Made by a program: the position numbers and the translations under genes
Shown here: in pieces, positions 16,191 to 46,240 of the stretch
How the letters are laid out: each line of letters starts with the position of its first letter
Position numbering within the stretch: the stretch's first letter is position 1
DNA from: Octopus vulgaris
Taxonomy: Eukaryota
Assembly (NCBI GenBank): GCA_951406725.2
Contig: OX597814.1
Location: 35,216,001-35,280,000 of the forward strand
Length of the DNA stretch: 64,000 nucleotides
Reading direction: 5' to 3'
Notes under the pieces: model-generated
Told to the model about the DNA's origin: nothing
Seen by the model: the letters and a program-made list of their open reading frames with translations, nothing else
The model's database searches: none

Positions 16191-16191
<1 letters not shown>

Positions 16192-19019
16192 TTTGTGATA
16201 TAATTTCAGCTAATGATGTTGATATCACAAACCTCAACCACCTATACTATGCATCCGCAAAAATCTCAACGATCCTATGTGGTGTAAAGATTAGAAAACG
16301 GCAACATTCCCACAAAAAGCCTTCTTGGCAAGAGCGTCTGCAACAACAAATTAAAATATTTAGATCTGACATTGAATATTTGAAAAACCTTAAGGCTCAC
16401 AAGACTACTAAACCTACAAAAACCCAAAAATTACAGAAAAAATACAATATGAAAACTATACTTGATATTGATGCCACCATAGAAACCATCAAACAAAAGG
16501 TATCTGCCAAAGCTGCCCGCATAGCGAGGTATGAAAAGCGAGTTAGATTTTTCAAGGACAACAACATGTTCAAAAATAACACCAAGAATTTTTACAGGAA
16601 GATAGGAAAAACAGCGTTTACTGCAAGGTCTGTACCATCAAAAGAAGAAGTGCAGGGATTTTGGAATAAAATCTGGGCAGAAGAAAAAACACACAACGAA
16701 AAGGCCCCGTGGATTGACAGAATATCTACAGAACTGGACCCCTTAGAAGAGCAAAAGTGGGAGGGTGTCAAGGTAGAAGATATAAGATCTGCTCTCAGGA
16801 GGTCAAGCAAATGGAAGTCTCCAGGAAAGGATAAAATTCCTAACTTCTGGCTGAATGCCTTCCCAGAGAGCCATGAACTGCTAACAGAACTGTACAATGA
16901 TGTTTTGCAACACCCTAGTAGGATGCCTCCTTGGCTAGTTAATGGGTTAACATTCCTGCTTCCAAAAAGTGAAGAAACAAATGAACCAAAAAACTATAGA
17001 CCCATAACCTGCTTAACAACTATGTACAAAACACTAACATCTGTCCTGACGGAATATACCTATAGTTTTTTAACAGACAGCAGCATATTCCCTAATGAAC
17101 AGAAAGGATGTAAACGTGGATCCTACGGCTGTAAAGACCAACTACTCATCAATAAGATGATCTTAGAAGATTGTCACAAACGACACAAAAACTTATCAAT
17201 AGCCTGGATAGACTATAAAAAGGCTTTTGATAGCCTACCACATAGCTGGATTATGAAATGCCTGGAAATGTATAAGATAGCACCTACTCTGCGAAACTTC
17301 TTGACTGTAAGTATGAGATCATGGAGAACCACACTAACTCTGAACAGTGACAATGAATCCCTAAATGCTGGTGATGTAAAATTTGCGTGTGGCATTTTCC
17401 AGGGTGACTCACTGTCACCACTCCTCTTTTGTTTATCCTTAATACCTCTCTCAAAGCTGCTCAATGACGCGCAGTACGGGTATAAAATGTTTGATAAAAA
17501 TATAAATCATCTCATTTACATGGATGATTTAAAGCTTTTTGCAAAAATTGACCAACAACTCAAGGGCTTACTAGCGATAGTCAAACAATTCAGTGACGAC
17601 ATCAGAATGCAATTCGGCCTCGATAAATGTGCAAAGGCTACCTTTATCAAAGGAAAAATGACAGAAACATCTAACGTTAACCTTGACCAGCAGAATGTCA
17701 TAAAAGAACTATACCCAGCGGAGAGCTACAAGTACCTAGGGGTAATTGAAGGGAACGGAATAAGGCATTCAGAGATGAAGGAAAGGATCAGGAGAGAATG
17801 CTATCGAAGAGTGAGAGCAATACTCAAGACAGAGCTGAATACAAGAAACAGGATCGAAGCGATCAATGCATTAGCCATACCAGTCGTGACTTACAGTTTC
17901 AATATTGTTAACTGATCAATTACTGAAATATGTCAGCTCGACAGAAAAATAAGGAAACTGTTGACAATGCATAGAATGCACCACCCTAAGGCAGATACAG
18001 AACGACTCTATCTGCCAAGAAAAGAGGGAGGCCGTGGTCTTTTGCAACTGGCAATAACAATGAAGATTGCTACAATTGGCCTAGACACCTACCTGAAAAA
18101 CTCAGTCACAAAACAGGCAAAGGAATATCTAAGTGAATTCCGAATACAACCAATTTCGGAATTAGAGATAGACATACAAGAAACAAACACAGAAAAAGCT
18201 AGGCGCATGAAAAGCCGTGCCAAAACTGCGGCCTTAGATATGCTGAATAATAAATGGCAAGAAAAACCTCTCTATGGCAAATACCCAAAGAGAGCGAATA
18301 ATGCAGATATCGACAAAGCCCTGACCCATCAATGGCTAATGGCCTCTGGCTTAAAATCTGAAACAGAGGGGTTTATCATAGCAGCTCAAGATCAATGCCT
18401 ACCAACAAGAAACTACCAGGCCAACATATTAAAGAACGGCAGTAGCCCAACATGTCGTGTATGCCGACAACAAAATGAAACCATTGACCATGTTGTCTCC
18501 AAATGCAGTCTTCTAGCGCCTACAGAGTACCTCAGTAGGCATGATAGAGCAGCACAATATATTCACTGGGTAATTTGCAAAAACCTGGATTTGCCCCATG
18601 AAAAAAACTGGTGGGAACACAATCCACCTCCTGTGCTTGAAAATGACCACATCTCACTCCTCTGGAACTTCACCATTCAAACTGACAGGAAGATAGATGC
18701 AAATAGGCCAGACATCATATTGAAAGACTCCAGACAGAGAACATGCCTCCTCATTGATATGACTGTCCCAATCGATATAAACGTATCTGTCAAGACCTAC
18801 CAAAAACTGAGCAAATATAAAGATCTTGAAATAGAAATCAGCAAAATGTGGAAGCTGAAGACTAAAACAATGCCTGTTGTCATAGGTGCCCTGGGAATGA
18901 TAGCGAAAGGGACTGATTGCTACCTAACTCAGATACCAGGAAACCCCAAAATGGCAGAAATTCAAAAGATAGTGCTCATGGGAACTGCTCATATTCTACG
19001 CAAAATACTCTCTATGTAA
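16191..19019 (+). pseudogene. RT-RLE polyprotein ORF interrupted by one in-frame TGA at 17913-17915
   Basis: Track ORFs 16380-17915 and 17961-19019 are in the same frame (offset 1581 nt). The bridge reads NIVN*SITEICQLDRKIRKLLTMH. The frame is also open upstream from 16191 (FCDII..KPSWQERLQQQIK), with no element start visible. Confidence 0.9.
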
Positions 19020-19245
19020 TCCCAAGGTTTAAAACAAACTTTTTTTTTATTTTTATTTTTTCTAATTTATTTTTTTTTGTTTATTTTTTTATTTTTATGT
19101 ATTAGACATTCACTAGTACAACACCAAAAAAAGAGAAAAAAAACCCCCAAGTATATGGCACAGAACTTCTAACCTGTTGTCTCTTGAGGTCTCTGGGTGA
19201 GACTTGGAGCCAACTTGTACAGACATAAAGCAAAAGTCAAACATA
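16191..19245 (+). mobile_element. R4/Dong-clade non-LTR retrotransposon (RT + restriction-like endonuclease), 5'-truncated, inserted in (TAA)n
   Basis: One reading frame from 16191 to 19019 with RT motifs (KSPGKD, YRPITCL, DYKKAFDS, GIFQGDSLSP, YMDD, YKYLG), a CCHC knuckle (CRVC..ETIDHVVSKC), RHD, and a PD-(D/E)xK nuclease (RPDII..IDMTVP..KLSKY). A 3' UTR of ~225 nt ends directly in (TAA)n, and (TAA)n also abuts the 5' end. Confidence 0.95.
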
Positions 19246-44049: not shown

Positions 44050-44263
44050 ATTGTTGTACTTGGGGACGGTCACGTTGCCAGTTTAGCCAATGGAAACTCA
44101 CGCACTATATAGTTGGTGTTCACTTGCTTCAGTTTTATTTTACATTAATTGTATTGCGTTGTATTGTAATATAAAATAAAGCTGAAGCAAGTGAACACCA
44201 ATATATAGTGCGTGTGTTTTCATTGGCTAAACTGGCAACATGACCATCCCCAAAAACAACAAT
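44050..44263. repeat. Long palindrome, ~97-bp arms, ~20-nt spacer
   Basis: TTGCCAGTTTAGCCAATG...GGTGTTCACTTGCTTCAG / CTGAAGCAAGTGAACACC...CATTGGCTAAACTGGCAA. Confidence 0.92.
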
Positions 44264-44280
44264 GTATACATACATGATAC

Positions 44281-44313
<33 letters not shown>

Positions 44314-44581
44314 ATTTAATAATAAGAGTAAATATTTACTGGTAGAATTCGGTATGTAAATATAGCCGATTACCGGCAGGAACTTCTGTAAAGTTCAGTA
44401 TATATATTGTATATAAGAAAAAGGGACAAGCAACAGGTTGCTTGACCGCATACCGAAAAAATAGAAATAGCAGTCAAGAATGCTTATTTCTATCAAAGTG
44501 GGACTCCGAGCACGACAAACCCTGTAATTCACATATGCAAAACAGAAGGAATAGATAACGAAAACGAAGTCTGGTGGTTAT

Positions 44582-44695
44582 CTGTGAACATCATGTTTCT
44601 GGATTATAAACATATTGAATATATATTTCATATATATTTTTTTATATATATTTCATATACATTGCATATATATTTCACATCCTTCTTCAGCACAG
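44582..44695 (-). ncRNA. Putative type-I hammerhead ribozyme (inverted copy)
   Basis: Same motif on the minus strand, with stem II GGAT/ATCC. Confidence 0.7.
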
Positions 44696-45574
44696 CTTTC
44701 CTTGAAATAGATTTATCATAGATTTATCAAATGCTACGTACCTCAAACCTTCTGACCATGCGACATCAAAATATTTGAAGAAAGTGAGCAAAAGCTAAAC
44801 CTACATAGACGTTTGAATTCGTAAATCTTCCCTCCAAAATTTTGCCATGCGCACTACAAAAATAGTTCCATATGAGTAGGAACCATTTGGTTGTCGTAAG
44901 GGAGTGAAAAATCCAATTAGTAATTTAATAATAAGAGTAAATAAGATGTGAAATATATATGCAATGTATATGAAATATATATAAAAAAATATATATGAAA
45001 TATATATTCAATATGTTTATAATCCAGAAACATGATGTTCACAGATAACCACCAGACTTCGTTTTCGTTATCTATTCCTTCTGTTTTGCATATGTGAATT
45101 ACAGGGTTTGTCGTGCTCGGAGTCCCACTTTGATAGAAATAAGCATTCTTGACTGCTATTTCTATTTTTTCGGTATGCGGTCAAGCAACCTGTTGCTTGT
45201 CCCTTTTTCTTATATACAATATATATACTGAACTTTACAGAAGTTCCTGCCGGTAATCGGCTATATTTACATACCGAATTCTACCAGTAAATAATTGTGG
45301 TTTTTTAAAAAAACCTTTATAGAAATTATTTACTCTTATTATTAAATTACTAATTGGATTTTTCACTCCCTTACGACAACCAAATGGTTCCTACTCATAT
45401 GGAACTATTTTTGTAGTGCGCATGGCAAAATTTTGGAGGGAAGATTTACGAATTCAAACGTCTATGTAGGTTTAGCTTTTGCTCACTTTCTTCAAATATT
45501 TTGATGTCGCATGGTCAGAAGGTTTGAGGTACGTAGCATTTGATAAATCTATGATAAATCTATTTCAAGGAAAG

Positions 45575-45688
45575 CTGTGCTGAAGAAGGGTGTGAAATAT
45601 ATATGCAATGTATATGAAATATATATCAAAAAATATATATGAAATATATATTCAATATGTTTATAATCCAGAAACATGATGTTCACAG
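45575..45688 (+). ncRNA. Putative type-I hammerhead ribozyme
   Basis: Stem I CTGTG/CACAG; core CTGAAGA; stem II GGGT..ATCC; GAAA; stem III ACA-TGA-TGT; cleavage triplet GTT (after 45683). Confidence 0.7.
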
Positions 45689-45862
45689 ATAACCACCAGA
45701 CTTCGTTTTCGTTATCTATTCCTTCTGTTTTGCATATGTGAATTACAGGGTTTGTCGTGCTCGGAGTCCCACTTTGATAGAAATAAGCATTCTTGACTGC
45801 TATTTCTATTTTTTCGGTATGCGGTCAAGCAACCTGTTGCTTGTCCCTTTTTCTTATATACA

Positions 45863-45902
<40 letters not shown>

Positions 45903-45909
45903 ATAGTGA

Positions 45910-46240
45910 AGGCGTATGGCTCAGTGGTTAGAGCGTCAAGATTACGATCGTGAGGTTGTGAGTTCGATTCCCAGACCGGGCTGCGTGTTGCGTTCTTGAG
46001 CAAGACACTTCATTTCACGTTGCTTCAGTTCACTCAGCTATAGAAAAGAGTTGTGACGTTACTGGTGTCAAGCTGTATGGGCCTTTGCTTTTCCCTTGGA
46101 TAACATCGGTGGCGGGAAGAGGGGAGGTTGGTATGCATGGGCGACTGCTGGTCTTCCATAAACGACCTTGCCCAGACTTGTGCCTCGGAGATTAACTTTC
46201 TAGGTGCAATCCCATGGTCGTTCATGACCGAAGGGAGTCC
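45910..46240 (+). mobile_element. tRNA-derived SINE family D, full length (3' fragment also at 24550-24678 on minus)
   Basis: A box TGGCTCAGTGG and B box GTTCGATTCC. The 3' part matches the reverse complement of 24550-24678. Confidence 0.88.

Follow-up and report, generated by a model that had tools for sequence, protein, structure and literature searches.

The motif at 45575..45688 of the window (the whole 64,000-nt stretch of DNA that was analysed) is read as a hammerhead-shaped RNA belonging to a young non-coding repeat of 645 nt, which was likely mobilised by Penelope-like elements (PLEs). It carries an extra A before G12 that is conserved and likely functional, and it would self-cleave after GUU, best as a dimer. 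The probability of this reading as a whole is put at roughly 0.6. The extra A is common to many families and is the most interesting point of the motif. In the alignment of the homologous families, stems I and II show compensatory changes, indicating that the hammerhead fold is under selection.

The hammerhead motif and the insertion that carries it

The core positions C3, U4, G5, A6, N7, G8 and A9, the positions G12, A13 and A14, the pair A15.1-U16.1 and H17 are all present (Table 1), the site being GUU, and three helices with stem I open are backed by covariation. The motif departs from the strict consensus at the pair 10.1-11.1, which is separated from A9 and from G12 by one base each. It is a hammerhead variant rather than a strict-consensus member. 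When the sequence was re-read, stem I, the CUGAAGA and GAAA boxes, the extra A on both sides, stem III and GUU were all present as the earlier note had claimed. Its long AT-rich stem II was also confirmed, with the lengths given in Table 1, and the insert forms a long hairpin (z = -3.1) and no loose loop. A relaxed hammerhead descriptor gave two matches in the window and none in 100 of 100 dinucleotide-preserving shuffles. The folding z-scores of the two full copies against shuffles were -2.7 and -3.7. The predicted fold keeps all three stems in the 546-nt context and also in the circular unit; it pairs A14 with U17, which counts against activity.

Stem III consists of 3 bp and a triloop, with pair probabilities of 0.65, 0.69 and 0.45. 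The intermolecular stem III duplex would have eight pairs and a G-G at -6.4 kcal/mol, and the isolated hairpin is at +2.1 kcal/mol. The suggestion that the weak stem III points to activity as a dimer stands in part: the palindrome fits dimer cleavage, but 3 bp are present, so the monomer may cleave as well. GUU is a weaker cleavage site than GUC or GUA. The expectation that standard searches would miss the motif was borne out: Rfam gave no match at the gathering score, and the limits of the Cervera 2014 descriptor are exceeded. With the threshold relaxed to E<=10, the Rfam models still matched low-complexity sequence only and none of the hammerhead families.

Table 1. Features of the insertion and of the hammerhead motif, in positions of the window
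Feature	Position	Strand	Remarks
Whole two-armed insertion of the 645-nt element	44313..45873	.	(TA)n on both sides
Minus arm, unit 1-617	44313..44944	-	28-nt deletion; 'tail' end (CTTATTAT, then TA repeat)
Full hammerhead copy	44582..44695	-	family-consensus GGAT
Plus-arm 5'-truncated unit, positions 265-645	44945..45325	+
Half hammerhead	44945..45044	+	keeps GAAA, stem III and cut site (after 45039)
Plus-arm unit 1-548	45326..45873	+	second fixed end (tail-less), then (TA)n
Full type I hammerhead	45575..45688	+	basis: sequence, folding, covariation
Stem I, CTGTG / CACAG	45575-45579 / 45684-45688	+	5 bp
CTGAAGA box	45580-45586	+
Extra A between A9 and 10.1	45587	+	A, C or U in related families
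Stem II base, GGGT / ATCC	45588-45591 / 45666-45669	+	4 bp
Stem II insert	45592-45665	+	74 nt
Whole stem II	45588..45669	+	82 nt: long AU-rich hairpin on a 4-bp base and a 3x3 internal loop
Extra A between C11.1 and G12	45670	+	conserved across families
GAAA	45671-45674	+
Stem III, ACATGATGT	45674-45682	+	near-palindromic
GTT	45681-45683	+	predicted cut after 45683, placed by hammerhead consensus
Palindromic stem III and GUU	45674..45683	+

The two arms of the insertion are divergent (minus arm from 44944 to 44313, plus arm from 44945 to 45873), with differences at 2/546 and 1/352 positions. The two full hammerheads are inverted, and on the plus strand a full motif and a half motif stand at a distance of 644 nt. 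The earlier note had expected tandem transcription to provide the dimer. The two full copies lie on opposite strands, so tandem transcription does not join them in the window, where the tandem extent is 1.4 units only; tandem arrays occur at other loci. The third copy, described as cut close to CUGAAGA, does begin there, at 44945 with the second G of GGAT, 2 nt past the box. This half hammerhead is without the 5' strand of stem I, CUGAAGA, A9.1 and G10.1, and could therefore serve as a substrate strand only.

No ORF of at least 100 aa was found over 44313-45873, and the 645-nt unit is without the RT and GIY-YIG ORF of an autonomous PLE. Its GC content is 32%, below the 45% retrozyme limit. As in non-LTR retrozymes, a type I hammerhead is found in consecutive tandem units with no protein coding. 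The unit is a young protein-free repeat and likely a mobile element.

Several other features lie in the insertion or beside it. The segments 44399-44944 and 45326-45871 form a near-perfect 546-bp inverted repeat, and a transcript that ran through both would make a long double-stranded RNA. The left insertion end is adjoined by a 214-nt imperfect palindrome (44050-44263), 86% self-complementary and MITE-like, and the right end by a dispersed SINE-like repeat (45906-46240), which matches other loci at 78-84%. On the minus strand, 45274-45320 gave a weak histone 3' stem-loop match (26.7 bits versus a cut-off of 34), antisense of the tail hairpin and probably due to chance; the minus arm and L010 have both lost this tail hairpin. 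A 50-nt block (45793-45843) is common to all related families, and in contigs of runs guessed to be RNA it is also seen at higher depth with other flanks, which points to another related element. Elsewhere in the window, 16191-19019 of the plus strand holds a LINE-like RT (RVT_1, weak zf-RVT) interrupted by one stop codon, and a T-rich run follows at 19040-19096.

Genome-wide counts refer to one 2.8-Gb genome (G000). There, 469 exact matches to the 3' core motif were found (97 of the 100 listed carry the extra A), together with 372 exact matches to the 5' motif. The copies are 96-100% identical among the best 40 scored of 1624 candidates. They are dispersed or in head-to-tail arrays, and arrays of 6, 9 and 13 units are ORF-free between the units. 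Tandem arrays lie at G000:C14:68.53 Mb, C1:120.16 Mb and C4:46.55 Mb. Copies with deletions in the insert also exist, with motifs of 104 and 91 nt.

The difference GGAT versus GGGT in stem II, which had been noted as a change that keeps pairing, is present, but it is a private substitution and no covariation. GGGT occurs in one of the 100 listed copies of the 372 matches, namely the plus-strand copy of the window, so it gives no evidence of covariation and was rejected as such. The A>G at 45590, private to the plus-strand copy, may have come about by editing or by ordinary mutation. Among the runs guessed to be RNA there are assembled contigs over the motif, including one across the unit junction; because tandem DNA, a multimer or a circle would fit alike, these contigs were not counted as evidence. 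At position 45670, no difference was listed across four runs, which carry four organism labels.

Compensatory changes and the two extra bases

The 645-nt family has a divergence of about 1-3% and is too young to show selection alone. Five older homologous families (B-F) with a short stem II were found by pattern and BLAST searches, and their 3' flanks are 69-83% identical to the 645-nt family over aligned positions. The covariation alignment held 26 rows from six families, taken from 27 candidates; L196 was dropped because the pattern had caught another hammerhead, and the window copy was used in place of L003. In this alignment 97.2% of the cells were paired, and a double-sided change was observed in 10 of the 15 pairs, although the 26 rows are related by descent and the pair-change counts are not independent events. 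The covariation score was 0.575 versus 0.208 for the shuffled alignments (0/500). Slid registers scored at most 0.143, and the +1 slide, which pairs the extra base, scored 0.090. The pattern by which the rows were picked already required the core and some of the stem II base. Double changes were found in 5/6 pairs of stem I and 3/4 pairs of the distal helix, neither of which was imposed by row selection. Covariation across genomic copies, proposed beforehand as a check on the motif, is thus present in stems I and II. The covariation of both stems around an unchanging extra A fixes the register as N9.1 - pair 10.1/11.1 - extra A - G12. When 148 motifs were clustered greedily into 15 groups, some stems I were parsed wrongly and family B was largely missed, and the grouping serves only as a rough guide.

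Related families have a stem II of 23-35 nt, with the base and 3x3 loop as in the 645-nt family, and the 3x3 internal loop is kept in families A-F. Stem II of the 645-nt family contains three copies of an 11-12-nt motif. Compared with these families, the 74-nt insert is a recent AT-rich expansion outside the core, self-folding and tolerated. Other families in the genome have a stem II of 50-60 nt, so a long stem II is nothing unusual in itself and adds little that is new. L160 and L068 carry hammerheads with a stem II of this length and no extra A before GAAA.

The 5' extra base (45587) is a known trait of PLE hammerheads, which carry an unpaired base between 9 and 10.1 (PMC4209133, in its accessible text). 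At the 3' extra position, A was found at 30/30 loci, taken by BLAST rank, of family B, the one nearest to the 645-nt family, and the first stem II pair of these loci was A-U in 19, G-C in 4, G-U in 3, A-C in 3 and U-U in 1. At 30 loci of the sister family C, the same position was C in 24, T in 4, A in 1 and G in 1. Because family C has mostly C, A at the 3' extra position is not essential. When the position was left free in a genome pattern, A was found in 99 of the 100 listed (159 matches, control 2). This pattern favours certain stem III lengths, and a looser one was therefore run, which gave 469 matches with A versus 167 with one of the other three bases (controls 5 and 24), some matches being counted twice.

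In 30 loci of the looser pattern, N7 was G in 13, U in 11, A in 5 and C in 1, and N9.1 was C in 14, A in 9 and U in 7. The unimposed stem I positions 3-6 were paired in 25, 24, 29 and 23 of the 30 (controls 0.34-0.39), position 2 was paired in only 17, and stem III was a perfect palindrome in 18. By eye, the extra-A loci make up about ten families, several of which have no similarity to the 645-nt unit. Kept in so many families, the 3' extra A is likely a working core variant rather than damage.

In L178 (minus strand 471-534), the extra A and the U3-A8 swap occur together, just behind the end of a PLE. A metagenome pattern scan gave 61 matches, of which 60 were without a convincing stem I and palindrome and look like chance. 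L261:293-341, in a GC-rich metagenome contig, is a full-looking extra-A hammerhead with a 5-bp stem I, an 8-nt palindrome and GUC.

Few parts of the hammerhead are as strongly conserved as the stacking of G12 on the first stem II pair. According to isostericity tables, a sheared pair at 9.1/extra base would accept A-A, C-A, U-A and A-C. It is possible rather than probable that the extra-A hammerheads form a distinct subclass, in which an N9.1-A pair, probably sheared, lies between G12-A9 and stem II and the conserved 3x3 loop is a docking site. Such a subclass would be catalytically active and old, would also occur outside this genome, and would mostly escape Rfam as well as any descriptor in which core-adjacent mispairs are disallowed.

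Insertion footprint and proposed mobilisation

The arm ends of the insertions are mostly of two kinds. Among 51 arm ends at 26 loci, 25 lie at the tail end, 17 at unit 548 and 9 elsewhere. TA repeats of at least 8 nt follow at 44 of the 51, and at 14 of the 26 loci both kinds of end occur, each on its own strand. The insertions have an inverted truncated arm, a tail at one end and a microsatellite target. In the accessible parts of the literature, PLE insertions are described with an inverted truncated copy, a one-end tail and microsatellite targets (Craig et al. 2021, 10.1101/2021.04.23.441226), and two RT start sites have been demonstrated in vitro (Frangieh et al. 2024, PMC11167929). The idea that unit 548 reflects classical twin priming on a chance microhomology is weakened, because 548 can also be the only end, as in L005 and L008, and because an end equivalent to it exists in the autonomous PLE. 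The 5' starts of the arms are not clustered at the cut site, with 1/55 within 5 nt.

At 16 of 19 multi-unit loci, the units are closer within the insertion than to any other sampled locus. Private variants are shared at 9 of the 19, and at 3 the units are no closer within than between. The within-insertion similarity fits repeated copying of one circle, and it also fits a homogeneous source array.

A young intact PLE with a 781-aa RT and GIY-YIG frame lies at L212-L214 (G000:C16:33.68 Mb, C17:42.76 Mb and C2:17.35 Mb). It has a CX4CXXC linker and is Neptune-like by that motif, and upstream of the 781-aa frame lies an overlapping one of 330-380 aa for which Pfam gave no match. Frames of 781 aa hold 19 of the 150 listed GIY-YIG matches. 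Two kinds of end are found as in the unit, with similar terminal motifs. The hammerhead of this PLE has U3-A8 and no extra bases, and no BLAST similarity was found between the PLE and the 645-nt unit. It is a candidate partner of the unit only. Among the loci examined, no ORF-linked element with an extra-A hammerhead was found.

Several other loci were rejected as the autonomous partner. The G000:C12 pair (8.9 kb) and the C7 pair (3.8 kb) are duplications without PLE ORF, the C3 pair flanks a LINE-like ORF, and the GIY-YIG loci carry other hammerheads. A tblastn search with a Poseidon-like RT fragment found nothing linked to the unit. L037-L066 are mostly one family with the conventional PLE minimal hammerhead, and L051 and L058 carry Poseidon-like RT fragments. 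The insertion ends, which are alike in the 645-nt unit and the Neptune-type PLE, record the mobilisation route that was proposed for animal retrozymes.

The proposed mechanism starts from the ORF-free unit, repeated in tandem and dispersed, in which the compared stems I and II hold their register around a constant extra A. N9.1 and the extra A would form a non-canonical pair that stacks under G12-A9 and replaces the direct stack on G10.1-C11.1. Multimers of the arrays would probably cleave slowly through the intermolecular stem III, possibly with the help of protein, and give 645-nt monomers. The monomers may be ligated to circles, at slightly less than even odds. A Neptune-type RT-GIY-YIG protein would likely nick (TA)n and prime at unit 548 and at about 667 from both DNA ends. 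Reverse transcription through more than one unit from two DNA ends would then give the back-to-back arms in the window.

Alternative explanations and known systems

In vitro, many of the published relatives cleave slowly, with the help of protein or not at all. In the accessible text of these reports, PLE hammerheads cleave poorly even as dimers (PMC4209133) and 8/9 dimers of Xenopus retrozymes were without cleavage (Li 2026, 10.64898/2026.07.22.740005). The Anolis PLE hammerhead cleaved only with the PLE protein and was dispensable for insertion in vitro, where mutants inserted anyway and no reads ended at the site (PMC11167929). The main rival is therefore that the selected fold is a protein-binding or protein-assisted module, which has no measurable cleavage alone and of which the uncleaved multimers are the templates. 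The unclustered 5' ends agree with it, and the extra A beside G12 would fail the core-adjacent mispair criteria of PMC3088659 as available. However, all catalytic bases are kept, N7 is free, and the compensatory C3-G8 to U3-A8 swap is the pattern expected of catalysis; the module is considered unlikely, though it carries appreciable weight. A different possibility is that the class is active and the window family is crippled by its long stem II and GUU and carried passively. That the insert is derived (short in families B-F), that copies with deletions in the insert exist and that the family is too young to show selection itself would all suit this. On the other hand, the insert folds away from the core with three stems still predicted, stem I differs from its relatives by compensatory changes, families B and E use GUU, and other families in the genome have stems II of 50-60 nt; a crippled family is improbable.

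The unit could also be the terminal repeat of an unfound autonomous PLE, with the loci as its 5'-truncated copies. The PLE insertion footprint would be expected in this case, and the search covered the best 40 of 1624 candidates and 30 of 150 GIY-YIG matches plus 10 regions. Yet the long head-to-tail arrays are free of ORFs between their units and no examined locus runs into a PLE ORF, which makes a terminal repeat very improbable. Ordinary satellite DNA with a chance hammerhead-like string is refuted by the covariation and by the fixed insertion ends in (TA)n, and 0/100 shuffles gave the motif; the ease with which AT-rich sequence self-pairs and the lack of an Rfam match speak for it, but it has hardly any probability. 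The preferred reading is still a hammerhead RNA of a mobilised non-coding repeat.

The motif is like the PLE-type minimal hammerheads (PMC4209133, as far as its text is accessible) in being of type I, with CUGANGAH, an unpaired 9.1, a G-C at the stem II base and a palindromic stem III with predicted dimer use. The descriptor in that paper permits 'a possible extra N11', and 1/56 rows of its Fig. S3 reads AGAAA (the 29th in extraction order, the row being uncertain), so the extra A is rare and not unprecedented. In contrast to those hammerheads, about ten families of this genome carry the extra A as a rule, and the motif lies in an ORF-less unit. The same descriptor requires a loop 2 of 3-10 nt and GAAANNUH, whereas here the insert gives a loop 2 of 74 nt and the stem III insert puts 7 nt between GAAA and UH.

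Metazoan non-LTR retrozymes (PMC7229834; Li, Clavereau and Pollet 2026; both as available) likewise carry a single type I hammerhead in each tandem unit, code for no protein, are low in GC, range from monomers to multimers, and have been proposed to be mobilised by PLEs. The length of 645 nt compares with 170-400 nt in PMC7229834 and lies inside the 51-972 of Li 2026. Unlike these retrozymes, the unit carries a PLE-type hammerhead with two extra bases and not a canonical one; among them, axolotl HHR_Amex2 has a U-U mismatch at the helix II base and cleaves. With Neptune-type PLEs (Craig et al. 2021 and PMC11167929, in their accessible parts) the unit shares the inverted 5'-truncated arm, the single-end tail, the (TA)n targets and two fixed RT start points, but it has no ORF, and its tail is about 115-120 nt versus 30-40 nt. 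Natural core insertions (A6a, U13a, 2a/2b), a U10.1-U11.1 mismatch and the U3-A8 swap have been described, and some of these variants cleave (Perreault et al. 2011, PMC3088659). In the accessible text of that paper, none of the insertions lies between 11.1 and G12, and matches of that kind were filtered as core-adjacent mispairs.

The extra-A families suggest that hammerhead censuses undercount, and the natural families with a covarying stem II are ready-made constructs for probing the flexibility of the active site. Lunse, Weinberg and Breaker reportedly described small PLE hammerhead variants in 2017. A description of the extra A as a conserved class was found in none of the literature covered, though that 2017 paper or supplementary material of PMC7229834 or PMC4209133 may show it. 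The accessible parts of PMC6155905, PMC7936874, PMC6765202 and PMC1636495 hold nothing on the position before G12. Retrozymes and PLE hammerheads are already known, and the conserved extra-A class would be the new part.
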